Shown here one piece after another: positions 3-18,792 of a stretch of 53,962 nt of DNA. The notes under the pieces are model-generated. The model did no database searches. It worked only from the letters and a program-made list of their open reading frames with translations, and was not told the DNA's origin. Origin of the DNA: Nitrospirota bacterium (GTDB lineage Bacteria; Nitrospirota; UBA9217); the NCBI GenBank assembly GCA_045403145.1, contig JAXIPA010000102.1:1-53962 (forward strand), in the 5' to 3' direction. Both the position numbers and the translations under genes were made by a program. Numbering within the stretch: position 1 is the first letter of the stretch; every line of letters begins with the position of its first letter.

Positions 3-2279
3 CACCGCAAGCGACAGACACGCGATGCTCTTGGCCGCCTGCTCGCGGTTGATGAATATGAGGGAACCTATTCCTCTTGCACCACTGATGTAGGAACCCC
101 CTATGCTACAACTACCTATCAATACGATACTCTGGGCAATCTTACCAAGGTGGTCGACGCAGCCAACAATTGGACCACGATACAGTACGATTCGTTCGGG
201 CGTAAAGACTCTATGTTCGACCCCGACATGGGCCGCTGGGACTATACCTACGATAAGAACGGCAACCTCAAGACCCAGAAAGACGCATTGATCTCGCGAA
301 CGACTATAACATTTGATTACGATGAGTTGAATAGAGTAAAAAAGAAAGATTACCCGACGGGGACAGATGTAACCTACACGTATGACCGGTATGATGACGG
401 AACAACGACAAATGCGATAGGCCGGTTAACAATTATGACCGACCCATCGGGTACGACAACATATCAATATGACTACATGGGAAGGCCGAGGACTACAACC
501 AAGAGGGTTGACGGCGTCGATTATCCAGTGACAATCGGATATGTCAACGGCAGAATGGACAGTATAGCCTATCCGGACAATGAGGTTATAAGTTACGTCT
601 ATGGAGCCGGCAATGAGTTGACCGCGGTCCGGAACAACGCGACCAATTACGCGTATGGCATTTATCAAGACTACAATGCTCTCGGGCAACCGGGGATGCT
701 TAGAAACAATAACTCCGTCAGTACAGGCTATACTTACCATCCACAGAACAACCGGCTCATCAATATAACGACGAGCAGCCCCACTCAAGCGCTCTTGAAC
801 CTCACGTATGATTACTGGGATAACGGGAACATTAAGAGCATTGCGGACAATCTCAACCCGGACATGCCCGGCATGACAACAGCCGGGTTGGCCATCAACT
901 ATACGTATTCACAAACCGAAACGTGGTATGAGCGCCATGGCCCCCATGCCGTCACTGAGACGTCCGACGGGAAGGTCTATAAGTACGATAAAAACGGCAA
1001 TATGATCTCTGACGGAGAAAGAACGATTGCTTATAATTACGACAACATGCCGTCGTCCGTAACGCTGGGCTACGCGACAACGGATTTCGTATATGACGGC
1101 AATGGAGCGCGGGTAAAGAAGATAGATTCTGGCGGTGAGAACATTTATATCGGCAAGCTCTACGAATGCAGAGCCGGAATCTGCACCAAATATATCTTCG
1201 CCGGAGGCGCTCTCATAGCCCATAAAAGCGGCACTGACGTCATGTACTACCATCAAGACCACCTGGGAAACACGAGGGTCGTTACGGAAGACATTGTTCA
1301 AAACGATTCGCCTCAGATATCTTACTATCCCTTCGGTGAGATGCAATCGGAGACCGGGGGCACGTTCACGGTAACGCACAGATATACCTCACAGGAGTTC
1401 GATTATGAAACGGGGCTGTACAATTACAATGCGCGGTTATATAACCCTGCTCTTGGCAGGTTTATCAGCCCGGATACGATTGTACCTGATCCCGCGAACC
1501 CTCAGGCGTTAAATCGTTATTCGTATGTGCTGAATAACCCTCTTCTTTTCACCGACCCGAGCGGACATGATTCTGCCGCGAATTACGCGTACATTGATTT
1601 TTATTCTCAACCTGACAACGGAGGCCAATCCAATTTCTCGACCTACGATAGTTATAACTATTATAATTACTATGACCAGATTTCCTCACAACCCTTTGCA
1701 AATAACGCATATGTTCCGTATGACTCAAACGGTGGAGGTAGCGGCACAAATCTTGGCAACGCAGCTTATAATAGCGGCATAGCGTATGGAACATACGAGG
1801 TTGGATCAGCTATTGACGATGGTCTTTCAGACGCAAGTGGCGGTCACAGCGGACAAGATGGTTTGTTTGGAAGTTTTAGGGAGTATGCACTTGAGCGAGC
1901 AAACCAACAACTACTCGCTGGCAACAATGCTGCAGCGTTTATTGATTGGTGGGGCGGTAATTTCATATACGCAACCTTCCATCCTGAGTGGTATGAAGCT
2001 CCATTAATATTTTTGGGTATTGGCAGGATAGGAATTGAAGCTCATCATCTTTTACCGCGCGCGTTTAGGTCGTATTTCTCAAAGGCCGGTCTCGATATCG
2101 AAAAGTTTACCGTAAATATGGCGACAGATACTCACAGGCGCTTACCAAATGGGGTCCATACAGGATCGAATAACTGGAATAAAGCGTGGAGAGAGTTTAT
2201 TAGACAGAATCCCAATGCAACATCTGAAGACATATTGCGCCATCTGGAACGGATGAAAAAACAATTTAATATTCTATGA
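3..2279 (+). CDS. Rhs/YD-repeat polymorphic toxin, 5'-truncated; C-terminal DUF2380/SitA6-like His-rich predicted nuclease
   Basis: The frame is open from the window edge (HRKRQTRDALGRLL...). It has YD repeats, DPDMG and PHAV motifs, and an Rhs core ending ARLYNPALGRFISPD...YSYVLNNPLLFTDPSG (about 1554). The tip reads AHHLLP...THRRLPNGVH...WNKAWREF. Confidence 0.92.
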   Translation, partial: HRKRQTRDALGRLLAVDEYEGTYSSCTTDVGTPYATTTYQYDTLGNLTKVVDAANNWTTIQYDSFGRKDSMFDPDMGRWDYTYDKNGNLKTQKDALISRTTITFDYDELNRVKKKDYPTGTDVTYTYDRYDDGTTTNAIGRLTIMTDPSGTTTYQYDYMGRPRTTTKRVDGVDYPVTIGYVNGRMDSIAYPDNEVISYVYGAGNELTAVRNNATNYAYGIYQDYNALGQPGMLRNNNSVSTGYTYHPQNNRLINITTSSPTQALLNLTYDYWDNGNIKSIADNLNPDMPGMTTAGLAINYTYSQTETWYERHGPHAVTETSDGKVYKYDKNGNMISDGERTIAYNYDNMPSSVTLGYATTDFVYDGNGARVKKIDSGGENIYIGKLYECRAGICTKYIFAGGALIAHKSGTDVMYYHQDHLGNTRVVTEDIVQNDSPQISYYPFGEMQSETGGTFTVTHRYTSQEFDYETGLYNYNARLYNPALGRFISPDTIVPDPANPQALNRYSYVLNNPLLFTDPSGHDSAANYAYIDFYSQPDNGGQSNFSTYDSYNYYNYYDQISSQPFANNAYVPYDSNGGGSGTNLGNAAYNSGIAYGTYEVGSAIDDGLSDASGGHSGQDGLFGSFREYALERANQQLLAGNNAAAFIDWWGGNFIYATFHPEWYEAPLIFLGIGRIGIEAHHLLPRAFRSYFSKAGLDIEKFTVNMATDTHRRLPNGVHTGSNNWNKAWREFIRQNPNATSEDILRHLERMKKQFNIL

Positions 2280-2286
2280 GGTAGGT

Positions 2287-2904
2287 ATGAAGTTTTACAA
2301 CTTAGATAGTGAGGATAAGTATTATGCAGAACCTGCCGAAGGGACGGACTGGGAAAGCATAACTTGCTCTGTCCATGAAGACCATCGAAGGGCTGGTAAA
2401 CGGATCGGTGATTTAAGAGTTGATTTACCATCATCTAAGGTACCTCACTTCATTGCGACAATCTTGGGCGACTGGATAATCACCGATGAGGTGGCTAAAC
2501 TATTCGAGGGTGCTGGCTTTACAGGATATGAATTGAAGCCTGTCACTGTTGATAAGGTCAGGAGGGGAAATAAACAAGAGGTACCACAGCTTTGGGAATT
2601 AATTATCACGGGTCTGGGTGGAGATGCTCATCCAAAATCAGGAATTAATTTAAAGTATGAATGTAGCGCATGCGGATATAGTAAATATAGCGGTTTTACG
2701 AAAGGTTTGTATATTGACGCAACTCAGTGGGATGGGTCAGATTTCTTTTATGTATGGCCGCTCCCAAAGTTCGTAATTGTCGCAGAACGAGTCAAAAAGT
2801 ACATTGAATCCCATAAATTGAAGAATTGCAAATTTATTCCGACTGAGGATTTAGTCAGTGTTGATGAAGAAGGCGAACTTAATCCTGGGATGCGTGTGCC
2901 ATGA
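2287..2904 (+). CDS. Putative immunity protein (Imm11/SitI6-like, CxxCG)
   Basis: Starts 7 bp after the toxin stop, with a GAGGTAGG RBS. It shares the AT-rich composition of the toxin tip and has CSACG and WDGSDFF motifs. Confidence 0.75.
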   Translation: MKFYNLDSEDKYYAEPAEGTDWESITCSVHEDHRRAGKRIGDLRVDLPSSKVPHFIATILGDWIITDEVAKLFEGAGFTGYELKPVTVDKVRRGNKQEVPQLWELIITGLGGDAHPKSGINLKYECSACGYSKYSGFTKGLYIDATQWDGSDFFYVWPLPKFVIVAERVKKYIESHKLKNCKFIPTEDLVSVDEEGELNPGMRVP

Positions 2905-3033
2905 AGAGGCATCCGTTTTTTCCTACGTTGCACTAAATAGATCAGGCTTGTTGGTCACTTCCTGCCTGCATTTGATGATGCTGAGATCATTGCAAATCAC
3001 ACACTGGCCATGAACAAGCTGTGGAGGAATAAT

Positions 3034-6000
3034 ATGCCGTCAAAAATAGGAAGTAAGGCATTCATCGCACTTATGATTGTCTCACTCATATCACTACTGG
3101 TCAGCATTGCCCTCGCCGCTCCGGTGGAATATTTCTACGACGAGCTGAACCGGCTGAAGGAAGTGCGTTATCCCGACGGCACGATAATCAAGTACGACTA
3201 TGACAAACTGGGAAACATAACGTATAAGGAAATGCTCAGAAACGGTCATACCCTTACGGTCCAGAATTCGCCTGCGGGGTTGGGCACGTTGACAAGTTCG
3301 CCGGCAGGCTTAAATTGCGGACAGCTTTGCACGGTCAAATTCAACCACGGCACCGGGGTGACTTTGACGGCCGATCCTGCGAACGGCTACGCTCTTACCG
3401 GCTGGTCAGTTGCGGGTTGCGGTCTGGCAAGCAGTTGTACGTTCACGCTGAATGCCGACACAATTGTTACCGCAACCTATGGCCAGATATTCGATATCTA
3501 TATGACGGAGGTCAGCAGTCCTTCCCTTGCCGCGGTCAATGGTACGATTACGGTTCACAATACCGTCGCGAATTCCTGGGTCCAGGCCGCAGGACCGTTT
3601 CATGTGAAGTTTTATCTGTCCGCGAACAACGTCATTGCGACAACCGACACGTATTTAGGCGAGCGTCTCGTGAACGGCCTTGCCCCGGGAGCATCCGATA
3701 CGGCGGACACGGTGTTGACCATTCCTGCCAATCTCGCGCCGGGCGCGTACTTCATCGGCGCGATTGCGAACCCAACCGGCGAGGTTACTGAAACGAGCCT
3801 GACGAATAACGCCATGGCGGGGAATCTTCTGACGACTTCATTGAGACCTGATCTCATAGTGACCGCTGTATCCGGTCCCGTGAGCGTGAACGCGGAGCCC
3901 ACGATTTCCGTGTCGAGCACGGTAAAGAACCAGGGACTTGCGGATGCGGGTATTTTCGATGTGAGATTCTATCTTTCAGTCGACAGCGTGATAACGACGA
4001 ACGATGTCTATTTAGGCTCCCGCACGGTCAACAGCCTTGGCGTAAACGCCGAGGAGACGGCCATCTCGACCGTAAGCATGCCGGTCAGTGTTACGAGCGG
4101 GACGTACTATATCGGAGCGATAGCGGATGCAGGCAATTTTGTTTCTGAGTCCCACGAAGCGAACAACTCTTTTGCCGGGACCCAGATTATGGTCTACCAC
4201 GGCTACCCCGATTTGGTGATGACGGCGGTTTCCGGACCTGCCGGCGCCTATACCGGAAAGGCCATTCCCGTTACGCACACGGTTAAGAACCTGGGGTCAG
4301 GACCGGCCGGCAGCGGCGGGTTCTCCGTTCACCTTTACCTTTCAACCGACAACGTCATAACGCCAAGCGATACCTATCTGGGCAGCAGACTCGTCGATTT
4401 ACTGGAGGCAGGAGCAGAGAAGACGTTCACGAACTTGGTCTCCGTTCCCGTGAGTTTGGCGACTGGGACATATTTCATCGGAGCGATTTCTGACGCTCAG
4501 GGCAACGCGAACGAATCTGACGAGGCAAACAATGCCTTTGCTGGAAACCAGATAAACCTGACCCTTATAGGGAATCACCTGATCGATGCGGGCGATATCC
4601 ACACCGTGGCCCTGAAGCCGGACGGTACCCTCTGGTTGTGGGGAAATAACTGGGATGGACAGTTGGGGTTGGGAAATGATCCGATAATATACAGCACACC
4701 CACCCCGACACGGATCGGTTCGGATATCCCGTGGAATGCGGTTGCTCCAGGCGGCAAGCACACCACGGCTTTGAAATTGGACGGCACTCTCTGGGCATGG
4801 GGAGACAACGGGAACGGTCAATTGGGAGATGTTACGACAACAGATAGGTATTCACCAGTACCGGTAGCGACTACTCTTCCATGGGTCACGGTCTCAGCGG
4901 GCTATATTCACACCGCAGCATTGAAATCGGACGGAACCCTCTGGACATGGGGAGATAACTACTATGGTCAATTGGGAGATACTACGACAGCGTATAAAAC
5001 CGCCCCTGTTCAGATTGGGACAGAATCCCAGTGGATGGCCGTTTCTGGTGGAGATCACCATACCATGGCTCTGAAAACGGACGGAACCCTCTGGGCATGG
5101 GGAGCCAACTGGGGTGGTCAGTTAGGTGACAGCACGATGGTAGATAAACATGTACCGGTACAGGTTGGGACGGATAACCAGTGGGTTGCCGTCTCAACGG
5201 GAGGTTACCACACCATGGCCCTCAAAGCTGACAGCACCCTGTGGGCATGGGGAACCAACTACGACGGTCAATTGGGAAATGGTACGCATGCCATCTATAG
5301 TTCGCAAAATATATCGGTCCCTCAAAAGATCGGGACTGACCGGTGGATTGCTGTTGCGGCTGGAAATTGCCACACCGTGGCATTAAAAGAGGACGGCACT
5401 CTCTGGACGTGGGGGTGCAACAGCTCTGGTCAGTTGGGATACGTTCCGGCGGTAGTAACGGAAAAATATTCGCCCAAACAGATAGGGACGGATAACCAGT
5501 GGGTCGCCGTAGCGGCGGGACGTGACCACACCCTGGCCATGAAATCGGACGGCACCGTCTGGGCATGGGGAGAGAACGTCCACGGCCAGTTGGGAGACGG
5601 CACAACAGTGAACAGATCTACACCCGTGCAGGCGTTCCTCAACATGTTCCCGCCCGTGGCGGATTTCACCGGATCTCCCACGAGCGACTTCGATACCATC
5701 ACGGTCAATTTCACGGACTTGTCTACTAATGCACCTGCGTCCTGGCAGTGGAATTTCGGCGATGGAGCTACCAGTACGCTGAGGAATCCCTCGCATACGT
5801 ATACCAGCGTAGCAAGCGCGGCGACCTATACCGTGACTCTTACTGCGACAAACAGTGCGGGATCAAGTATCGCGACAAAGTCAAACTATATAACCGTCCA
5901 GCATTGCCCGAACCTTCCGGTCCGTATTGCGGGCACGACGCCCACCTATTATTCCACGCTCCAGGCGGCCTACAATGCAGCGGGCAACAATGCCGTTATC

Positions 6001-6183
6001 CAGATGAGAAATTTGCCGTACTCGCAAAGCCTAAATGCAAACCGCACCGTAGCTGTAAGCCTGGAAGGCGGGAAATCGTGTGATTTTACAAACACGATCG
6101 GCGTTACCACGCTGCAGGGGTCGATCACGACAAGCACAAGCGCCGGCACGGTTACTATTAAGGATTTTGTATTAACGCCATAA
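3034..6183 (+). CDS. Secreted multidomain protein: YD hairpin, InlB B-repeat-like domain, 3x CARDB, RCC1 propeller, PKD, C-terminal domain
   Basis: GGAGGA RBS precedes ATG 3034, then a signal peptide (ALA-A). Motifs: YFYDELNRL...YDYDKLGN; three FYLSxDxVITxxDxYLG...YxIGAI...ExxxxNN units; about 7 HTxALKxDGTLWxWGxNxxGQLG repeats; PKD WQWNFGDG...NPSHTY. Confidence 0.9.
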   Translation: MPSKIGSKAFIALMIVSLISLLVSIALAAPVEYFYDELNRLKEVRYPDGTIIKYDYDKLGNITYKEMLRNGHTLTVQNSPAGLGTLTSSPAGLNCGQLCTVKFNHGTGVTLTADPANGYALTGWSVAGCGLASSCTFTLNADTIVTATYGQIFDIYMTEVSSPSLAAVNGTITVHNTVANSWVQAAGPFHVKFYLSANNVIATTDTYLGERLVNGLAPGASDTADTVLTIPANLAPGAYFIGAIANPTGEVTETSLTNNAMAGNLLTTSLRPDLIVTAVSGPVSVNAEPTISVSSTVKNQGLADAGIFDVRFYLSVDSVITTNDVYLGSRTVNSLGVNAEETAISTVSMPVSVTSGTYYIGAIADAGNFVSESHEANNSFAGTQIMVYHGYPDLVMTAVSGPAGAYTGKAIPVTHTVKNLGSGPAGSGGFSVHLYLSTDNVITPSDTYLGSRLVDLLEAGAEKTFTNLVSVPVSLATGTYFIGAISDAQGNANESDEANNAFAGNQINLTLIGNHLIDAGDIHTVALKPDGTLWLWGNNWDGQLGLGNDPIIYSTPTPTRIGSDIPWNAVAPGGKHTTALKLDGTLWAWGDNGNGQLGDVTTTDRYSPVPVATTLPWVTVSAGYIHTAALKSDGTLWTWGDNYYGQLGDTTTAYKTAPVQIGTESQWMAVSGGDHHTMALKTDGTLWAWGANWGGQLGDSTMVDKHVPVQVGTDNQWVAVSTGGYHTMALKADSTLWAWGTNYDGQLGNGTHAIYSSQNISVPQKIGTDRWIAVAAGNCHTVALKEDGTLWTWGCNSSGQLGYVPAVVTEKYSPKQIGTDNQWVAVAAGRDHTLAMKSDGTVWAWGENVHGQLGDGTTVNRSTPVQAFLNMFPPVADFTGSPTSDFDTITVNFTDLSTNAPASWQWNFGDGATSTLRNPSHTYTSVASAATYTVTLTATNSAGSSIATKSNYITVQHCPNLPVRIAGTTPTYYSTLQAAYNAAGNNAVIQMRNLPYSQSLNANRTVAVSLEGGKSCDFTNTIGVTTLQGSITTSTSAGTVTIKDFVLTP

Positions 6184-6214
6184 TTAGATATATAACATTC
6201 AGGAGGAATGGGAA

Positions 6215-7777
6215 ATGAAAAAAGCATTTTTTTTAATTACTGGTCTGCTTTGTGTCAGCAGCGTCCTTTATGCGGCGAATGGAGATCTTATTGTAAACGG
6301 CAACCTCGGCGTCGGGACGACTGCACCAAGTGAGAAGTTAACTGTAAATGGAAATATTGCTTTGAGTGCCTCGATTAACAAAGCTGGTTTATCTGCAAAT
6401 GCGGCTGGTTTATCTCGTTTGGGAATCAATTCGTCGGCCCTGCTCGGAGAAGATGATCATGCCAAACAGGGAGCATTTATAAGTTTTGATAGCCGCGCAG
6501 GCCAGCGCGCAGCGGCAATATGGGTCAAACTGCCGAATTCTTCTTTAGATACAGAAGTAGTTTCAGTAACGAACACCGGCAACGTCGGCATCGGGACGAC
6601 GAATCCGCTACGCACATTAGACCTTGGCACAAATGGACAAATGACCTTCGGAAACAATGGACTTTATTCAACAGGCTCTCCTGGAACATTTTGGTATAGT
6701 GACAATTTAAGCTATGGAATATATAAAACTGCCGGCAGCTGGTCTGCTCCAAACTACCAGCAGCTTGCGCTTAGGTGGGACACAGGAATTACTATTGATG
6801 GCGGGAGTGCGTATGGGAAAAGCGGTCTCATATTACAACCGAACGGCGGCAACGTCGGAATCGGGCCGGCGAGTCCATTAGCAGGCTTGCATATTAATAG
6901 AGCTGGCACTTGGGGCTCCTTGACGATCCAAAACCAATACGCAGGCTCCAATACCCATTTTGATTATCCCGATGGTAAAAATTATATCAGAGGAACTACC
7001 ATATTTGGAGATACCGGAAATAATGTCGGCATTGCGACATATAATCCCTTGTCGAGATTAAGCGTTGGGGGGGATGGTAACTCCCAAACTGCCATTTATG
7101 GCACCAACCCCGGAACCGGCATCCAAGGCTACGGCGGCATCGGTGTTTATGGTAGTTCGCCATCCGGTGGGGTAGGTGCTCTTGGTTACTACAATTGGGG
7201 CGTTATGGGCCAGGGTCCATCAGGTGGATATGATTTTTATGCTGCTGGCGCAGGTGTGAATTACGGCCCATTTACCGGCGCTCACGAAGTGAAGCTGTCG
7301 AACGATGTTCCAGCCAATATAAAGGCCGGAATGCTCGTCTCCGTGACCGGTGAAATGCAAATGAGAAAAGACGACACAGGGAAAATCAACATATCATCCA
7401 CACTGCCTACGGTAAGACTCTCAAATATTGTGAACGACAAAGCCGTTTTTGGAGTTTTTGTCATGGAAACCAACTTGCGTGAGGAGCATTGGCTCAAGAA
7501 AAAGGTCACGGAAGGCGAACGATACGCGGCAGTCAATGCCGTGGGTGAAGGCCGGGTATGGGTTACGAACATGAGCGGCGACATAGAGCCGGGAGATTAT
7601 ATAACGACCTCGCCCGTACCGGGATACGGCCAAAAGCAGAATGACGATCTTCTTCATTCCTATACAGCAGGAAAGGCAACTGAAAAAGTGGATTGGAACA
7701 AGGTAACTGAGACCGTCGAATTTGGAGGAAAAACGTACAAGGTCTATTTGATCGGAGTAGTTTATACGAGCGGATAG
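6215..7777 (+). CDS. Secreted tail-fibre-like protein with GNVGIGT repeats and a C-terminal intramolecular-chaperone-like (Peptidase G2/S74-like) domain
   Basis: AGGAGG RBS and a signal peptide (LYA-A). Four GN(V/L)G(I/V) repeats and a Gly-rich G(V/I)xG segment precede FTGAH...VNAVGEGRVWV...GDYITTS...GYGQKQ. Confidence 0.75.
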   Translation: MKKAFFLITGLLCVSSVLYAANGDLIVNGNLGVGTTAPSEKLTVNGNIALSASINKAGLSANAAGLSRLGINSSALLGEDDHAKQGAFISFDSRAGQRAAAIWVKLPNSSLDTEVVSVTNTGNVGIGTTNPLRTLDLGTNGQMTFGNNGLYSTGSPGTFWYSDNLSYGIYKTAGSWSAPNYQQLALRWDTGITIDGGSAYGKSGLILQPNGGNVGIGPASPLAGLHINRAGTWGSLTIQNQYAGSNTHFDYPDGKNYIRGTTIFGDTGNNVGIATYNPLSRLSVGGDGNSQTAIYGTNPGTGIQGYGGIGVYGSSPSGGVGALGYYNWGVMGQGPSGGYDFYAAGAGVNYGPFTGAHEVKLSNDVPANIKAGMLVSVTGEMQMRKDDTGKINISSTLPTVRLSNIVNDKAVFGVFVMETNLREEHWLKKKVTEGERYAAVNAVGEGRVWVTNMSGDIEPGDYITTSPVPGYGQKQNDDLLHSYTAGKATEKVDWNKVTETVEFGGKTYKVYLIGVVYTSG

Positions 7778-7834
7778 GGCGCTCAGGTCAGTTCGCGAAA
7801 GTAACCGAGATCACTATAAAGAAAGCTGATTGAT

Positions 7835-7887
7835 AAGAGCCATGACCATCTATCGGGATAGATACCGAAAAAATGGCCATGGCTCTT
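7835..7887 (+). terminator. Hairpin downstream of the tail-fibre-like gene
   Basis: AAGAGCCATGACCAT / ATGGCCATGGCTCTT inverted repeat; the U-tract is weak. Confidence 0.35.
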
Positions 7888-7933
7888 CGCATTAGTGGAG
7901 CCCCCTCCGGAGGCTCCCTCAATTAACGCGACC

Positions 7934-8045
7934 TCCCGCGACTTGACCCGTGCTACGCGACTGCGCTTGCGCAAGTGCCAGGCGCGGGTTGCCGCTTTCC
8001 TCCCCCGGCGGGAGTGTATAGACCGGGGGATTTCAAGTCGCGGGA
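7934..8045 (+). ncRNA. Candidate three-way-junction structured element of unknown family
   Basis: A perfect 13-bp closing stem TCCCGCGACTTGA/TCAAGTCGCGGGA encloses two hairpins; the G-U pairs favour the + strand. Confidence 0.3.
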
Positions 8046-8269
8046 TTGAACTATCATGCTGTAGGATGGGGGGGGAGACCACAGTGTGAGCCATCAATCT
8101 GTCCGCGAAAACCACCGCTCTGAAGAATCTCGTCTATAAAACCTCAATACAAATTACAGCTAAAGTACTATTGTACATCTGCATAGCCGGTGATATCTTA
8201 AAAATAAGGGATAAATGATCCTACATTAGTTCAACCCCGTCCGAAAGTACGGGAGGGAGGAGACAAATC

Positions 8270-9097
8270 ATGTTACAACGTAGAATGTTTCTCTGGTCAA
8301 TCGTCTTACTGTTCGGAGCGTTATCTCTGACCGGTTGCGGCGGAGGTGGCGATGATGGAGCACCGGCCCCAGCATCAACGGTCATTGGGACTCTGGACCC
8401 GGCAATCCTGAATGCCGGCGGCTATTACTTCCAGGTTCATACGCAGACCAACCAGCCCGGCGAGTTGAGAACAAATATCACTGTGCCGGCAGGATCAACG
8501 GGAACGGTTACGTTTAACACCACGCTGACCGCAGCGCCTGGGGTGACTACAGCAGGGACGGGAATCGCGAGTCTGACTGTTAATGTTAACACGGGCGAAG
8601 TTACGGGCGCGTCCGTGACGGTTTCCAACCTGTCGAGTCCCGTTACTGGCGCACACATCCATAATCCTGCACCTGCGGGGCAAGCAAACGGCGCGGTTGT
8701 GATTGATCTTTCCAATAGGGTCACCACGGCTCCGGCACCAACGGTCATTGGGACCCTGGACCCGGCAATCCTGAATGCCGGCGGCTATTACTTCCAGGTT
8801 CATACGACGACCAACCAGCCCGGTGAGTTGAGAACAAATATCACTGTGCCGGCAGGATCAACGGGAACGGTTACGTTTAACACCACGCTGACCGCAGCGC
8901 CTGGGGTGACTACAGCAGGGACGGGAATCGCGAGTCTGACTGTTAATGTTGGCACGGGCGAAGTTACGGGCGCGTCCGTGACGGTTTCCAACCTGACGAG
9001 TCCCGTTGTTGGCGCGCATATCCATGCTCCTGCACCTGCGGGGCAGGCAAACGGCGCGGTTGTGATTGATCTTTCCACTAGGGTTACGGTCAACTAG
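8270..9097 (+). CDS. Lipoprotein with two circularly permuted CHRD-like repeats
   Basis: GGAGG RBS and lipobox LTGC. The CHRD motifs YFQVHTxxNxPGELR and AHIH...NGAVVIDL each occur twice. Confidence 0.85.
   Translation: MLQRRMFLWSIVLLFGALSLTGCGGGGDDGAPAPASTVIGTLDPAILNAGGYYFQVHTQTNQPGELRTNITVPAGSTGTVTFNTTLTAAPGVTTAGTGIASLTVNVNTGEVTGASVTVSNLSSPVTGAHIHNPAPAGQANGAVVIDLSNRVTTAPAPTVIGTLDPAILNAGGYYFQVHTTTNQPGELRTNITVPAGSTGTVTFNTTLTAAPGVTTAGTGIASLTVNVGTGEVTGASVTVSNLTSPVVGAHIHAPAPAGQANGAVVIDLSTRVTVN
8376..9084 (+). repeat. Near-identical intragenic tandem duplication, period 363 bp
   Basis: CAACGGTCATTGGGA at 8376 and 8739; GATTGATCTTTCCA at 8701 and 9064. Confidence 0.95.
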
Positions 9098-9100
9098 GGT

Positions 9101-9291
9101 CAACACGGCAGCTGCGAGCTACGAGTCTAGCCGCGAAGGCGGCATGGGCTCTAGCGGAGTACTGTGATCCGTAGGGCTCTGCTTCTGTGAAGGTAAAGAA
9201 TCGCCGAGAAGGCCAAAACCAAAAAGCCTCGCAGGCGCATGCGGATGAGTTGGAACTCAGAGGACAAATAGATCTGATCGCGCCGTAGTTG
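9101..9291 (+). ncRNA. Candidate multibranch structured RNA of about 190 nt
   Basis: Closing stem CAACACGGC/GCCGTAGTTG encloses at least four internal hairpins rich in G-U pairs; a terminator follows. Confidence 0.35.
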
Positions 9292-9319
9292 TTTAAACAA
9301 ATAGTAAATAGAGACTCAT

Positions 9320-9367
9320 CACGCCGTCCGACTCGCTGAGCTTCCGCATCGGGCGGCGTGTTTTTTA
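9320..9367 (+). terminator. Rho-independent terminator
   Basis: CACGCCGTCCGA...TCGGGCGGCGTG followed by a T tract. Confidence 0.75.
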
Positions 9368-9471
9368 GAAGTGACGCGACTGCCTTACTTCCCGACATGC
9401 TTGACCGTCATTTCAGTATGGTTCAAGCTCAAATTTACGTGTCTTCTCTATTCACATGCGCATGTAAAACT

Positions 9472-9590
9472 CTGGATTCCCGATTGAAGCATTCACCCTG
9501 CACTCGCGCTGACATAAAGCCTGCATTCGCGCTATGCACTCATAATCGCAGGCCGCCGGCTCGTAAACGCTGGGCGCAGGCGGGAATGAC
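9472..9590. repeat. REP/MITE-like palindrome with nested insertions
   Basis: CTGGATTCCCG...CGGGAATGAC arms interrupted by a CCTGCAC...GCAGG element that is itself interrupted. Confidence 0.75.
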
Positions 9591-9623
9591 GCAAACTAAA
9601 TACGTTGAAGTATTGTGAGGGAT

Positions 9624-10343
9624 TTATAAAACGGGCGCAATGGTTCCGTTGTGACAGGATGCGCAGGATGGGGCCACGCCTGTCGTACTCAGGAGAACAA
9701 TGCTGCCGGTGAGGTTGACTCCGTGACAGGTTGTGCATCCCGACACGAGATCACGCCCGTACCGTCCGTGAAACGTTGCAGGGTTGTCCCTTCCGGCGAG
9801 CCAGCCAACAGGATGCCCGATGGAGCCGTCCGGTCCGTTGTGGCAGGCGAAACAACTTACCCTCGTGATGCCGCCGTCAAGGCCCGCGCCGTGGCACTGT
9901 GAGCAGAGCGTTGGGTCAAATGACCCGCTCACCGGCTGCGGATTCGTAGCAAGCGTCAATATATAGTTGGCGATGTCCTGAATGTCGGTCTGGGTAAGAC
10001 CTATATGACCGCGCATGATGGGTAAATTCTGTACGGCACCATTGATGATGGGGATCGTGGCCGTCTGGATGTTCGGACCGATCTTCCCGGCGGCGTTGTT
10101 GCCGTGACAGGGCGCGCAGTGCAGTACAAAGAGTGTCGGGCCTGCGGAGGCGGGCGGCACCGATTTGATGAAGGTGCCGTGGAAATCAGGCGTACCGACG
10201 CTAATATGGCTTGCCCAGTTCTCCTGATGCCCCGCTTCCGGCACGAATGCCTTGCCGTTGTCAGCACCTTTGCCGCAGCCGGATGAGATAACGATCATCG
10301 CGAGAAGAGCAAGGCAGGTCATTATTTTTCTTATTTGTGACAT
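9624..10343 (-). CDS. Lipoprotein multiheme cytochrome c (5 CxxCH), ExtD-like
   Basis: Lipobox SSGC; CAPCH, CSQCH, CFACH, CTTCH, CASCH. The start MSQIRK overlaps the upstream stop. Confidence 0.85.
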   Translation of the reverse strand: MSQIRKIMTCLALLAMIVISSGCGKGADNGKAFVPEAGHQENWASHISVGTPDFHGTFIKSVPPASAGPTLFVLHCAPCHGNNAAGKIGPNIQTATIPIINGAVQNLPIMRGHIGLTQTDIQDIANYILTLATNPQPVSGSFDPTLCSQCHGAGLDGGITRVSCFACHNGPDGSIGHPVGWLAGRDNPATFHGRYGRDLVSGCTTCHGVNLTGSIVLLSTTGVAPSCASCHNGTIAPVL

Positions 10344-10810
10344 CGTTTGCAAGTCCTGTTGTTCTGCGTTCCGTGACAGCGGTAGCAGCTTGAAGGATCG
10401 ATCCTGCCGTCGATTCTGTGCTGGAACAGGTAATCGCCCCGGTGAGGCAGCCACCGCTCGGGAGATCCTGAATATTTTTCGCTCGGCTTCAGTTCATCCT
10501 TATACGCATGGCAGTCCGTGCAAAAAGACACCTTGTGGCAGGCATTGCACAGCCGCGACGACTGCGATGCGTAAAAGCGATGTCCGCTGATGAAATCCGC
10601 GCTGTGGTTGAACGTCGCTATCGGTTTCAGTGCTACGCCGGTATCGTCGCTGTGGCATTCGGTGCACAATGGTATGTCCGTGAGTTGAATGGGATGACTC
10701 TCCGGTATCTTCCTCTCGATCGCAAGTACGGCGACCGGCGATCCCCCGAACGTCAACAAGAGCGCCGTTAACGAAATTAACAATTTTTTCCTCGAATTCT
10801 CCCAGCCCAT
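10331..10810 (-). CDS. Pentaheme cytochrome c, ExtC-like
   Basis: Signal peptide; CTECH, CNACH, CTDCH, CYRCH, CKRCH. PHRGDYLFQHRIDGRIDP resembles Geobacter ExtC-type cytochromes (from memory). Confidence 0.85.
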   Translation of the reverse strand: MGWENSRKKLLISLTALLLTFGGSPVAVLAIERKIPESHPIQLTDIPLCTECHSDDTGVALKPIATFNHSADFISGHRFYASQSSRLCNACHKVSFCTDCHAYKDELKPSEKYSGSPERWLPHRGDYLFQHRIDGRIDPSSCYRCHGTQNNRTCKRCHK

Positions 10811-10811
10811 G

Positions 10812-12065
10812 TTATTTCCCGCCTTTATAACCATACACGAGGTTCAGGAGCGCCGTCGTATTATTAATGAAATCCGGCGTCTTGCTGTAGTCTATGCTGA
10901 AACCGGACGTCAGCGAGTCGTTGATCGTATAGCGAATGGTCCCATTCAGGGAATACGCATTTTTCAGATTGTTGAAGGCGCTGTCATAATCAAGATCAAT
11001 CGCGTCGAGTGAAAGACGCCACTTTTCCAGTTTGGTTGTTGCATACGCCCTGGTCTCGACGTATCGAAGCTTTTCCACCGGGCCTTCCATCCTGTGGAAA
11101 GAGAGCCCGGTCAGAATGCCGCTCACCGTGGCCGAAACCTTGGCGCCGTAATAACCCGCATCACCCATGCCCCGGTAATCGTAATGAGCATAATCGGCGA
11201 CGCAGCCCAGATTGTCGTTTATCCGGTAATCGACTGCCCCACCCGCTTTCGTAAGCTGTTCACCCGGGCCTAAAAAATCCGGCGAGAACACCGAAAGCGT
11301 CCGCGCGGAAAATGCATCGTCAAATCGAGATTGAATGAACAACGCGGACAGGATCAGTCGCTCCGCGGGGAAAATGCGAAGGTTATACGAATGCTCCCGC
11401 CACCCTTCTGTTAAATTGTTGTAGGAGGATTGTCCCTTGATCTCGACCTTTTTGACCGGAAGCAGCCAGATGTCCAAGCCGCCTTCTTCGCGAAAGCGAT
11501 TGCCATCGTTGGCTTCCGTGAGAACGGAAACACCGAGTTCACCCTTGTTTTGAATTCTCTGAAATATCCTTCCGCCGTAGACTGCATCGCCGGCCCTCGA
11601 ATCGAATTCCGTCTCAACCGGCGCCCCCCCGAACAGGGAAACTCCGGTACGAGGCGTAATCTCCCACCGTGTCGCGATGCCGTCTATTTGCTCTGATGCG
11701 ATTCCCTCAAATACGAATTGCCTGCCTGCGGTCAGCAACAGCCTCCTGTCGGCATAAGGCGAGTACTTTAAAAAGGCATAGGTCAGTTCGTCGCGGGTCT
11801 TCTTTTCAAACTGCGAGGTCTTGAAATCGTGCCCGAGCCATCCCGAGAGATAAAGGTTTACCTGTCCGTTTTGAAGGTTTCTGCTTTCCAATTCAACGTA
11901 CTCGTAGAGCGGCGTAAATCTGTTGTCACGCGCATCCTGGTAAAACTTGAGATAGGTTTTTGAGGTGAAGTCGTTTTCCGCGGCAAAGACCGGCGCAGCG
12001 AGAGAGAGGACCAAGAATAAAAAAGAGGGCAGAACTCTATGCATGGGGCGCGGCATTTGAAACAT
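10812..12065 (-). CDS. Outer-membrane beta-barrel of a porin-cytochrome complex (ExtB-like)
   Basis: Signal peptide, amphipathic beta-strands, PLYEY and GRQFVFEG...IDG motifs; directly upstream of the multiheme cytochromes. Confidence 0.75.
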   Translation of the reverse strand: MFQMPRPMHRVLPSFLFLVLSLAAPVFAAENDFTSKTYLKFYQDARDNRFTPLYEYVELESRNLQNGQVNLYLSGWLGHDFKTSQFEKKTRDELTYAFLKYSPYADRRLLLTAGRQFVFEGIASEQIDGIATRWEITPRTGVSLFGGAPVETEFDSRAGDAVYGGRIFQRIQNKGELGVSVLTEANDGNRFREEGGLDIWLLPVKKVEIKGQSSYNNLTEGWREHSYNLRIFPAERLILSALFIQSRFDDAFSARTLSVFSPDFLGPGEQLTKAGGAVDYRINDNLGCVADYAHYDYRGMGDAGYYGAKVSATVSGILTGLSFHRMEGPVEKLRYVETRAYATTKLEKWRLSLDAIDLDYDSAFNNLKNAYSLNGTIRYTINDSLTSGFSIDYSKTPDFINNTTALLNLVYGYKGGK

Positions 12066-17115: not shown

Positions 17116-18216
17116 TCAAGAAGCCGGCGGCAGTGTTATGACAAATTTTGTTCCCTGCCCGTCCTTGCTGGAAACGGCGATTTCGCCGTTATGCTGTTTG
17201 ATGACATTATAGCAGATAGCAAGGCCGAGCCCTGTGCCCCGACGCTCTATCCTTTTCTTGGTGGTGAAGAAAGGCTCGAAAATTTTCGCAATGTCCTTTG
17301 CTGCGATCCCCGACCCCGTATCGGCAACCTCAACAGTAAAACGGGCCGGATCGCAGAAAGTCGTAAGAACGATGCTTCCTCCCGGCATCAAGGCATCAAG
17401 CGAGTTCTTTATCAGATTTTCAAAGACCCGGCGTAACATACGCTCTGATCCCATGACCAGTCTGTCCCGGTGTCCATAATGTCTCACTACCTCGATGCGG
17501 TTTTCAGTCATATGCTTTTCAAAGAGCTGCAGAGACGTTTCGATGACATGGCGGAGGTCCACAGGCAAAAAGGCATCTGTCTGGGGCCGTGAAAATTCGA
17601 GCAGGTCCTTCGTAAGCTCGGCAAGGTTATCTATACCTGTCTGGATTTTCTCCAGATATTCTTTTTTTGCGAAATCAGCAGGCAAGGATTCAAAGAGCAG
17701 ATAGAGATAGTTGTTGATGTAATGGAGCGGGTTGTTTATCTCATGGGCAATCTCCGCAGCAAGCGTTCCGATCGCCGCCATCTTTTCGGACTGCGCCATC
17801 AGGTCTTTGATCCGTTTCTGCTCGGTTATGTCCCGAAAAACATGCACAGCGCCCCGGGGTTCCCCCGCTGCGTCGTAACTGGGGAACAGTGATACAGCGA
17901 ATAGTGCCCCCCTGATTTCGACGGTCTGCTCCTGTTGCGCCTGCCCGGTGGTGAGAACGGGCGTGGAGGGTACGGCTGAGGGCGGCGGATACGCATGAAT
18001 TACATCGGAGATGCGGACGCCGATGAGCTCGTCATAGGATTTTTGCAGCCGCGCGCTGAATGACCGGTTGACCCGAATAATTCTGGCGTCCCTGTCGAGG
18101 ATGCAGATCATGTCGGGACTGGAGTCAAATATGTTTTGCCAGTCATCCCTGGCCTTGACAACCTGTTCGAACAACCGATCTGTTTCGGCGGGATTTTTGG
18201 GAAGGTCCGTAGACAT
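17116..18216 (-). CDS. PAS-domain sensor histidine kinase
   Basis: PAS domain, H-box AHEINNPL, and NLIKNSLDA, DTGSGI, FEPFFTTK, GTGLGL boxes. Confidence 0.95.
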   Translation of the reverse strand: MSTDLPKNPAETDRLFEQVVKARDDWQNIFDSSPDMICILDRDARIIRVNRSFSARLQKSYDELIGVRISDVIHAYPPPSAVPSTPVLTTGQAQQEQTVEIRGALFAVSLFPSYDAAGEPRGAVHVFRDITEQKRIKDLMAQSEKMAAIGTLAAEIAHEINNPLHYINNYLYLLFESLPADFAKKEYLEKIQTGIDNLAELTKDLLEFSRPQTDAFLPVDLRHVIETSLQLFEKHMTENRIEVVRHYGHRDRLVMGSERMLRRVFENLIKNSLDALMPGGSIVLTTFCDPARFTVEVADTGSGIAAKDIAKIFEPFFTTKKRIERRGTGLGLAICYNVIKQHNGEIAVSSKDGQGTKFVITLPPAS

Positions 18217-18422
18217 AAAACATCCTTTTGGGCATATATGACTTAGTCCTTACAGGATTATAGCCAAGGTGGCGCGGATGTCAAGGAAATGACGAGCACG
18301 CTGCTGCCTGCTCGTTTGCCGGTAAAATCCCCCTCTGTCGGAACGGTTATAAAGCACCGTTTCCCGACGAAACGTTGAATAAACCCTTCTCCAGAAGCAT
18401 AGCCGCCTAAAGATAAAGAACC

Positions 18423-18450
18423 TTGACATTTTCGTAACACATGTTACAAT
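18423..18450 (+). promoter_or_regulatory. Sigma-70 promoter with overlapping palindromic operator for the chr operon
   Basis: TTGACA-N16-TACAAT, with GTAAC-ACAT-GTTAC at 18434-18447. Confidence 0.6.
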
Positions 18451-18507
18451 AACATCATAGGTTACATGAAGCATGGGAAACGGTGAACCACCGGGGAGGC
18501 GCAAATA

Positions 18508-18792
18508 ATGAAACGCTTACTGCATACGATTGAAGATATGCTGGCGGCAACGGCACTTGCTGAATGGGGTTTGACAGAAGCGGCCAGAGATATGGTGAAA
18601 ACGACCATGGCGGCGGAGAATGCGGGAAACGTCGAGGAAATTTCTGCGGCGGCGGCCTTCGCTGAGTCCGGCGAATACGAGACCGCGCGTGAACTCTCCG
18701 CAAGGAGATGGGGGAAAACTCGTGAGCTCGAAGTGACGCACCCTGATGATTGCCAGTACGGGGACAATGATCTCTGCTTTGTTCAGTCATAA
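18508..18792 (+). CDS. Small hypothetical protein (AAAFAExGE motif)
   Basis: GGGGAGG RBS; internally repeated AxAExG; first gene of the chr operon. Confidence 0.65.
   Translation: MKRLLHTIEDMLAATALAEWGLTEAARDMVKTTMAAENAGNVEEISAAAAFAESGEYETARELSARRWGKTRELEVTHPDDCQYGDNDLCFVQS

Follow-up and report, generated by a model that had tools for sequence, protein, structure and literature searches.

An Rhs toxin locus of a Nitrospirota bacterium with a YD-tagged adaptor and a candidate fibre partner

Rhs cages that come with neither a type VI secretion system (T6SS) nor a TcA syringe are common in environmental bacteria, and the locus described here bears on how they find and enter their targets. The stretch of DNA analysed here, called the window, is 53,962 nucleotides (nt) long and forms the beginning of contig C64 (GenBank JAXIPA010000102.1, assembly GCA_045403145.1) of a Nitrospirota bacterium. 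Its first lines hold four genes on the + strand and in the same orientation: the end of an Rhs toxin gene, a small gene that likely confers immunity, a gene for a leader-bearing adaptor that opens with a tag of two YD repeats (YD2), and a gene for a leader-bearing fibre. The original prediction, made from the letters of this DNA, had claimed such a co-oriented set with an Rhs toxin and two exported proteins, and the list of open reading frames (ORFs) and the domains confirm it. This work describes the whole Rhs cage, a predicted joint between adaptor and fibre, and the recurrence of the tagged genes beside Rhs genes, and weighs a proposal in which these proteins might be mounted together. A small conserved tag on otherwise unrelated binding proteins, combined with a predicted fibre joint, makes a hypothesis that is testable at the bench.

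The features of the locus, with the method by which each was found, are as follows.

3..2279, + strand: C-terminal 758 amino acids (aa) of the Rhs cage toxin (Pfam and NCBIfam domains, orthologue alignment)
Contig C260, 1..3729, - strand: N-terminal 1243 aa of the Rhs cage (other half of the same gene)
1323..1568, + strand: Rhs-associated core, residues 441-522, ending in FTDPSGH (TIGR03696, E 1e-22)
1995..2276, + strand: SitA6-like/DUF2380 toxin tip, residues 665-758, with the motif EAHHLLP (PF09533, TIGR02269)
2287..2904, + strand: probable immunity protein, with no signal peptide and one CxxCG motif, CSACG (family and orthologue context)
2896..2912, + strand: weak hairpin plus T run that resembles a terminator, where the immunity gene ends (terminator scan)
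3010..6183, + strand: YD2-tagged adaptor or adhesin, 1057 aa, likelier start 3034 (ORF, Pfam)
3118..3237, + strand: YD2 tag, two YD repeats straight after the leader, residues 37-76 (RHS_repeat/YD_repeat_2x)
3328..3486, + strand: InlB B-repeat (Flg_new_2) Ig-like domain (Pfam)
3517..4524, + strand: three CARDB domains, limits approximate (PF07705, E 1.7e-40, three stretches)
4582..5589, + strand: RCC1-type beta-propeller (PF25390, E 9e-86)
5650..5898, + strand: PKD domain (Pfam)
5872..6180, + strand: adaptor C-terminal domain, residues 955-1057, of no Pfam family, predicted seat of the fibre (profile, complex model)
6215..7777, + strand: secreted MAT-like fibre, 520 aa (ORF, profile matches)
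6275..6301, + strand: mature N-terminal motif ANGDLIVNG of the fibre, predicted docking strand (alignment, complex model)
7226..7774, + strand: conserved fibre C-terminal domain, residues 338-520 (sequence comparison, fold model)

The four ORFs were taken from a program-made list; they encode 758 aa (open at the contig start), 205, 1057 and 520 aa, and the spaces between them are 7, 105 and 31 nt. Signal peptides and leaders were judged by eye from the sequence, not by a predictor. The ATG at 3034 is the likelier start of the third gene because a GGAGG box lies 7 nt 5' of it, and a good ribosome-binding box also precedes the ATG of the fibre gene at 6215. The third gene has a guanine-plus-cytosine (GC) content of 0.51-0.58, against 0.41-0.50 for the other three (the end of the Rhs gene, the immunity gene and the fibre gene), and the contig mean is 0.54.

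The Rhs gene is cut by the start of the contig, and its upstream half, which lay outside the view of the original prediction, was sought and found in the same genome. The only other RHS repeat of the genome stands at the start of contig C260, in a frame of 1292 aa that runs off the contig. Read from its first plausible start, this frame carries a hydrophobic leader, SpvB (PF03534, E 3e-25), FG-GAP (PF01839, seven stretches, E 5e-46), TcdB_toxin_midN (PF12256, E 1e-31) and the first RHS repeats. The window half bears RHS repeats as well (PF05593, E 5e-19, a family that also matches the C260 half; TIGR01643, E 7e-12). A tblastn search of the genome gave no Rhs piece beyond these two, and the gene that they form is the single Rhs gene of the genome. 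The C260 piece stops on a full codon, and the window opens with the last two bases of a codon. In an intact orthologue of 2076 aa from the same genus (L103, genome G006) the C260 part aligns with residues 8-1268 and the window part from 1270, and in one of 2054 aa from the same family (L108, genome G127) the C260 part ends at 1247 and the window part begins at 1249. These intact orthologues show that the two halves abut with one residue missing, giving a whole protein of ~2,002 residues. The halves have GC contents of 0.484 and 0.475, against 0.56 and 0.54 for their contigs.

The BC-type architecture ahead of the shell is present on C260 with all its elements, namely SpvB, the FG-GAP propeller and the TcdB middle region, and a DPxG-type self-cleavage motif is read before the variable tip in the FTDPSGH of the Rhs core. 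The domain identities and the shape of the whole cage are established by computation. The genome is 97.5% complete, and searches whose controls were positive found in it no VipB/TssC (PF05943) and no PAAR (PF05488), while no search was aimed at VgrG. TcA_TcB_BD (PF18276) and VRP1 (PF03538) gave no match in the genome either, a weak result for the absence of TcA because these families matched no control genome. The genome searches were made with families of this kind and did not extend to two-partner secretion. A T6SS Rhs effector is not what the gene resembles, for its N-terminus is a Sec leader followed by SpvB, in a genome where PAAR and TssC were not found and VgrG was not searched. Taken together, the protein is a fused TcB/TcC-like cage that Sec would export, and no syringe for it is in sight.

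The tip of this cage is matched within gene 1 by PF09533 (E 3.6e-14) and TIGR02269 (E 1.5e-16), and by PF09533 (E 1.7e-15) when the tip is taken alone. The PF09533 scores of 53-57 bits lie above the cut-off of 26.3, and the TIGR02269 score of 60.6 bits lies below the equivalog cut-off of 85.75, so that membership of SitA6 is given to the tip at domain level only. The AHH in EAHHLLP may mark a His-Me finger nuclease. The neighbouring gene, which starts 7 nt past the Rhs stop, matches SitI6 (TIGR02264) weakly (E 3e-3, 16.9 bits against a cut-off of 100) and Gmx_para_CXXCG (PF09535) weakly too (E 0.16; orthologue E 0.096). Comparison gives stronger evidence: contig C2 of genome G019 has an orphan Rhs tip with 46% identity to the window tip, and the gene behind this orphan tip shares 64% identity with gene 2. 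Judged by sequence and by this conserved arrangement, gene 2 is likely the immunity gene of the SitA6-like tip. A cytoplasmic immunity protein would imply that the toxin acts in the bacterial cytoplasm.

The third gene encodes the adaptor. Its hydrophobic leader ends in ALA, with AP following, and RHS_repeat/YD_repeat_2x has one match in the protein, at residues 43-77. The YD hairpin that had been noticed at its start belongs to a tag of two YD repeats, straight after the leader. The consensus of the tag is [ST][IV]xYTYDDLNRL…Y.DGT.I.Y.YD..GNR, and it is near-invariant: in 44 aligned tags the Y, D, L, N, R and G positions are invariant or almost so. With this alignment, AlphaFold2 gives four beta strands with a per-residue confidence (pLDDT) of 86-95. 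The model superposes locally on solved Rhs shells (35 aa, root-mean-square deviation 0.5-0.6), with a local match to 4igl_B, the BC component of Yersinia entomophaga; the Foldseek E-values of the whole model are weak. A search with the tag profile against 1.84 billion representatives returned 103,775 matches, and among the 150 listed all are giant Rhs proteins with 14-81 matched stretches. An Atlas look-up of the adaptor N-terminus gave no usable match, and Pfam at E <= 5 gave only noise on the adaptor C-domain and on the fibre C-domain.

Behind the tag, the passengers vary widely and include Ig-like, PKD, dockerin, TSP3, fn3, cadherin-like, DUF11/CARDB, CHB_HEX_C, GDSL lipase and FG-GAP modules. 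Some small tagged proteins are little besides the tag and a dockerin-like or TSP3-like calcium-binding module. At locus L136, the Rhs protein (4344-9956) and the tagged protein (9992-11629) share the DUF285 type of leucine-rich repeat, which the Rhs protein has as an N-terminal arm, and the tagged protein additionally bears a dockerin. The idea that tagged ORFs are mere fragments of Rhs genes was rejected, as each starts with a leader, has two YD motifs and no more, and continues in long passengers unrelated to Rhs.

The order of Rhs gene, small gene, tagged adaptor gene and GDL-motif gene recurs in G127 (L108), in contig C15 of G019 (L002, with three fibres) and at the metagenome locus L114, and an adaptor and a fibre lie together on a 1.5-kb contig at L135. 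The adaptors of the recurrent loci have their last ~100 aa in common. The genes after the adaptors have in common only the mature N-terminus, where A20, G23, D24, L25, V27 and G29 are invariant; at L108 and L109 the remainder of the GDL-motif protein is not fibre-like. Among the 7,593 ORFs of the fetched loci, a scan to which the window's own ORF does not belong, a leader followed by GDLxVxG was found in seven real ORFs, plus one spurious leaderless match, and every one of the seven belongs to a locus with an adaptor C-domain. In the window and in four other loci where the C-domain is terminal and there is downstream room, the motif ORF comes right after the adaptor gene. The motif is missing from some C-domain loci, namely L004, L043, L080 and three short ones (L085, L086 and L126). 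That motif and C-domain co-occur exclusively in this manner is established by computation.

A complex was modelled from adaptor residues 955-1057 and three copies of fibre residues 20-150, each with its alignment, the trimer being assumed. The interface score ipSAE was 0.77, 0.77 and 0.78, and the best of three controls reached 0.01; the model has 96-103 contacts, a partner pLDDT of 89 and a contact agreement of at least 95% between runs. In a benchmark, 58 of 80 solved complexes and 2 of 110 mismatched pairs attained this ipSAE mark; the counts are only a rough guide here, since the model was built with custom alignments and with one chain in triplicate. In the predicted interface, residues 20-29 (and 36) of every fibre chain touch the final 23 residues of the adaptor (~1035-1057), and this contact coincides with the invariant motif of the fibre. 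According to the model, the last strands of the monomeric adaptor domain would offer three faces upon which the first strands of the trimer may stack. Since we know of no similar solved complex, recall by the structure model seems unlikely. The binding of fibre to adaptor, taken by itself, is in our judgement somewhat more likely than not. The original prediction had both accessories dock on the Rhs shell; docking of the fibre is indeed predicted, and its seat is the adaptor in place of the shell.

In one genome the fibre seat appears within an Rhs protein. In contig C2 of G019 (L109:8371-9900, - strand), the Rhs-core hairpin from DHLGS to YxPFGE, which is 13 residues long in the window's Rhs, gives way to ~115 residues in which the profile of the adaptor C-domain has a match (E 4e-19). 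Additionally, the orphan SitA6-like Rhs tip of this locus (L109:6611-7891, - strand) starts with an adaptor C-domain, and a GDL-motif gene lies a few kb beyond. The insertion suggests that at this one locus the fibre seat is part of Rhs itself. As a separate observation on the recurrent loci, the Rhs ORF of L114 (5903-8755), the nearest analogue among the metagenome contigs, starts just past the expected DUF6531 and overlaps the stop of an upstream zinc-ribbon-like ORF, and it may be truncated at its N-terminus.

The fibre has a leader that ends in LYA, before A, and this is followed by repeats of the GN(V/L)G(I/V)GT type. It has no Pfam match, but the phage-fibre likeness that had been claimed for it is upheld by matches to PHROG tail fibres (E 8e-10) and by its family profile, which matches the Bdellovibrio Bd2133 fibre (E 1.2e-10) and, more weakly, two more MAT chains. 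On the stalk, VIA gave Z values of 5.1-5.3, below the clear level. The fibre C-terminal domain, 183 residues long, is 50-65% identical in more than 715 database proteins with very different stalks, among them collagen and YadA-like kinds (loci L002-L081), and 80 genome loci carry it, spread over Nitrospirota, Desulfobacterota, Chloroflexota, Planctomycetota, Patescibacteria and several archaeal metagenome-assembled genomes. The domain folds confidently (pLDDT about 90). Foldseek found nothing for it at E <= 1e-3, and its best VIA hit had a Z of 5.6 over 55 residues (the base of the phi29 head fibre), which is below the clear level.

The tagged genes were surveyed in genomes and metagenomes. 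For the genomes, the first 177 aa of gene 3 were compared with relatives, and a profile was run against 401 Nitrospirota genomes. It matched 165 of them, mostly through the very common B-repeat. Among the 150 matches listed of 609, seven places in 6 genomes match from the leader onward: G000 (the window's genome), G006, G019 (two places), G127, G209 and G055. At six of these seven, still among the matches listed, an Rhs ORF lies within 10 kb of the tagged gene. The tagged gene is 3' of an Rhs gene and a small gene in G000, G019:C15, G127 and G209, immediately 5' of the orthologous cage in G006, and divergent from the Rhs gene at ~5 kb in G019:C2. There are thus three gene orders, and the Rhs types and toxin tips differ across the six linked places. 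A YD-only ORF of 94 aa in G044 also comes after an Rhs gene. The genomes hold 1 (G000), 1 (G006), 11 (G019), 6 (G127), 6 (G209) and 2 (G055) Rhs cores, and in G000 and G006 the tagged gene adjoins the only Rhs gene of the genome. By our estimate, which allows ~26 kb per Rhs gene, a random gene would be so near in roughly 1-5% of cases. The G006 locus (L103) has no fibre gene, and the C-domain of its tagged protein is shortened; at its end (17719-18639) lies an ORF of 307 aa that looks like an IS200/RAYT-type transposase.

For the metagenomes, a scan with five tag sequences gave 80 loci, and an ORF was counted as bearing an N-terminal tag when the match lay within 55 residues of its start, with at most two YD motifs and no long Rhs alignment. 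In 43 of the 80 loci the best-matching ORF starts with leader and YD2; the others are mostly matches inside true Rhs genes, and three have no ORF match. Eighteen of the 43 tagged ORFs have a same-strand upstream Rhs ORF with a core and a tip of 38-285 aa, and these upstream Rhs genes are of several N-terminal types. The share is 13 of 19 where at least 3 kb of upstream sequence is available and 5 of 24 where there is less; L112, with three YD-bearing ORF fragments upstream that point to a fragmented Rhs gene, would raise the former to 14 of 19. As a control, 80 loci drawn through the fibre C-terminal domain (±10 kb, many phyla) hold Rhs once, in the syntenic L002. A linkage of leader-bearing YD proteins to Rhs genes is borne out by these counts, and the recurrence is established by computation.

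In the mechanism that we propose, the locus would encode a TcA- and T6SS-independent Rhs toxin set of four parts. The first would be a Sec-exported fused TcB/TcC-type cage of ~2,000 aa with an autoproteolytic core, enclosing the SitA6-like (DUF2380) tip, and the second a cytoplasmic immunity protein. The third would be a secreted adaptor made of the two-YD-hairpin tag, an array of binding-type domains (Ig-like, CARDB, RCC1, PKD) and the C-domain, and the fourth a trimeric fibre, likewise secreted, that resembles the MAT fibres of Bdellovibrio. Each of the three fibre chains would stack its first strand (GDLxVxG) on the strands that end the adaptor C-domain, and the YD2 tag of the adaptor would join the Rhs shell through beta-sheet addition. 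Cage, adaptor and fibre would in this way become a single particle or an assembly on the cell surface, with binding parts that differ by locus; its passage through the outer membrane, its target and the receptor there are parts of the proposal that we infer. The full reading of cage, adaptor and fibre has, in our judgement, slightly less than an even chance of being right.

The docking of tag to cage, taken alone, is possible, and we lean somewhat against it. It is suggested because the tag is a piece of the shell, conserved far beyond its passengers and found beside Rhs genes, and because the shells of TcB and TcC join through sheet continuation. It is also suggested by YenTc, which mounts chitinases by strand complementation, as described in the accessible part of PMC12705794. 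A broader reading, which we consider somewhat unlikely, would make leader plus YD2 a general docking tag in many phyla, by which swappable binding, enzyme and fibre-holding proteins are mounted on Rhs cages non-covalently through beta-sheet addition. If it were true, Sec-exported Rhs toxins would own an apparatus for aiming and delivery that needs neither TcA nor T6SS, and a second joint, from adaptor C-domain to GDLxVxG strand, would add trimeric fibres in one Nitrospirota clade. The adaptor is also the first candidate partner proposed for the N-terminus of a MAT-type fibre, and three unnamed domain families are offered for curation, namely the YD2 leader, the adaptor C-domain and the fibre C-terminal domain. 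The original prediction of a secreted toxin particle with targeting parts is supported in part: the pairing of adaptor and fibre is predicted, and the docking of the tag on the cage, the binding of a receptor and the secretion of a particle are conjectural.

Several points weigh against the proposed assembly, and they are given here with the alternatives on which they bear. Nitrospirota have two membranes, and nothing that was found explains how a periplasmic cage of 220 kDa would exit. The score of the adaptor-fibre model is the model's own confidence and not a measurement of binding, and the genome counts are not independent because the genomes are kin. The fibre C-domain may be a chaperone of folding or self-assembly rather than a binding tip. 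Two observations, both leads only, point this way: two neighbouring paralogues in L002 carry S74 at the same position, the window fibre itself being without S74 (no PF13884 match), and the Atlas gave 'gp53 minor capsid', and Peptidase_G2 on 15% of the members of one cluster. The family of this C-domain is not linked to Rhs (1 of 80 loci).

The boundary between the gene pairs raises another view of the locus. With a weak hairpin after the immunity gene, the Rhs and immunity genes may be transcribed apart from those of adaptor and fibre; over the window region, 7 terminator-like sites were found against 8.7 expected from shuffles, and promoter-like sites were somewhat more frequent than in shuffles (19 against 11.1, standard deviation 3.0). 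The GC content shifts from 0.41-0.45 around the immunity gene to 0.51-0.58 in the adaptor. Around the tagged gene of G055 there is no Rhs across the 11.4 kb examined, and among the 19 metagenome loci with at least 3 kb upstream, five (L116, L149, L150, L160 and L162) are without an upstream Rhs, so the tag need not always have a neighbouring Rhs gene. These points would fit two separate systems that happen to be neighbours, a polymorphic toxin pair of Rhs and immunity protein, and an independent MAT-type surface adhesin held on a surface protein. The YD2 tag would then anchor the adhesin elsewhere than on the cage or merely start its fold, and the genes would be linked because they are regulated together, or transferred together in gene islands for surface and competition functions. 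The missing Rhs linkage of the fibre C-domain family speaks for this as well, as do the MAT fibres, which sit on the predator surface with a partner of their N-terminus that the accessible part of PMC10769870 gives as unknown. We nevertheless consider two separate systems unlikely, in view of the enrichment (13-14 of 19 against 1 of 80), which holds across differing gene orders, Rhs types and toxins. In G000 and in G006 the tagged gene adjoins the sole Rhs gene, the tag belongs by its nature to the Rhs shell, and one Rhs protein has the adaptor C-domain fused into its core.

The position of the tag can be read differently again. It always stands right after the leader and is near-invariant while its passengers vary, some tagged genes are not beside Rhs, and no known route for a cage was found in the genome; the tag could thus be a sorting or export signal for an outer-membrane route that handles YD shells, giving co-export of cage and tagged protein with no lasting binding. 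We regard this as quite improbable. The loci read have no conserved transporter gene in common, the idea does not account for how closely the tagged genes adjoin Rhs genes, and the tag is predicted with high confidence as folded beta hairpins, whereas we know of no N-terminal secretion tag of such a kind.

At five metagenome loci (L129, L136, L172, L174 and L179) the tagged gene starts 5-45 nt past the Rhs stop, where an immunity gene would be expected, and this position fits a protective role. Four of the five (L129, L136, L172 and L174) have no further short same-strand ORF after the tagged gene, so that a distinct immunity gene is not seen there, and L179 has further same-strand ORFs. With its signal peptide, the tagged protein might accordingly be a periplasmic guard of the producer, which holds the toxin in or chaperones the shell, for example at the opening of the cage, and stands in for immunity where no other candidate exists. 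This is very improbable in our view, for the window has a likely immunity gene besides, of which a conserved orthologue exists, the large and varied binding or enzyme passengers (dockerins, lipase) are not what a guard would be expected to have, and the adaptor is predicted to hold a fibre.

The genes around the locus and around its other half were read as well. The downstream neighbour of the fibre gene, 492 nt away, is the gene of a secreted CHRD-domain protein (window 8270-9097, + strand) that consists of two near-identical halves of ~125 residues each and, because the halves are nearly identical, holds a recent internal duplication. It is followed by two leader-bearing ORFs with several CxxCH haem-binding motifs (window 9624-12065, - strand) and by a leader-bearing protein of 417 aa that, read by eye, resembles an outer-membrane barrel; together these may be a set for extracellular electron transfer. 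On C260, a FixG-like membrane protein (Pfam) is encoded divergently upstream of the cage, and further upstream ORFs were read by eye as a TetR-type regulator and an RND efflux set.

The locus can be compared with systems already known, that is, with Rhs cages, BC components, SitA-type tips and MAT fibres. It shares with the BC (TcB-TcC) cocoon, for instance that of Yersinia entomophaga (4igl), the SpvB, FG-GAP and TcdB_toxin_midN domains, the YD shell, the core and an enclosed variable tip. Unlike that cocoon, the window cage is a single fused chain with a Sec signal peptide, its tip comes from a family of bacterial competition and has a probable immunity gene, and it belongs to an environmental Nitrospirota bacterium, in whose genome the search for TcA gave nothing, with TcA families that matched no control either. 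The Gram-positive, Sec-dependent Rhs/WapA proteins and the T6SS Rhs effectors have in common with it the YD cage, a core of the autoproteolytic type, the variable tip and, probably, the immunity gene, and WapA also has a signal peptide. What sets the window apart is its two-membrane host, the PAAR and TssC that were not found in its genome and its YD2-tagged accessories.

With myxobacterial SitA6/SitI6, the locus shares a tip that matches DUF2380/TIGR02269 and a next gene that weakly matches the double-CXXCG immunity family. SitA toxins are lipoproteins passed on by outer-membrane exchange, according to the accessible parts of PMC5562445 and PMC8546572. In contrast to the SitA6 lipoprotein, the window domain is the cargo of an Rhs cage, as its C-terminal tip, and both scores lie below the NCBIfam cut-offs.

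MAT fibres begin with a signal peptide and a conserved N-terminal domain, go on in a trimeric stalk and end either in S74 or in another, non-S74 part, and they sit on the predator surface through the N-terminal domain, whose partner in Bdellovibrio is unidentified in the accessible part of PMC10769870. Like the fibres described there, the window fibre has a leader, a repeat-built stalk that may be of trimer type and a non-S74 end. Unlike them, it adjoins Rhs genes in Nitrospirota, and a partner is here proposed for its N-terminus. Its C-domain belongs to a different and very widespread family, and the likeness to MAT fibres, whose defining feature is an N-terminal domain of ~130 aa, was judged from the leader, the stalk and the C-terminal end. 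In the literature covered, with subscription journals and supplementary files outside its scope, no family of leader-plus-YD2 accessories beside Rhs genes was found, nor any partner for the N-terminus of a MAT-type fibre.

The closest parallel for the mounting itself is YenTc, an ABC toxin that carries chitinases through complementary beta strands, as in pili (PMC12705794, accessible part). There, as in the locus described here, accessory binding subunits are encoded beside the toxin genes, and their joining by non-covalent beta-strand contact, in place of built-in receptor-binding domains, is what is proposed for the tagged proteins too. The acceptor in YenTc, as that part of the source presents it, is a domain of TcA, whereas here the proposed acceptor would be the YD shell and the donor a pair of YD hairpins.

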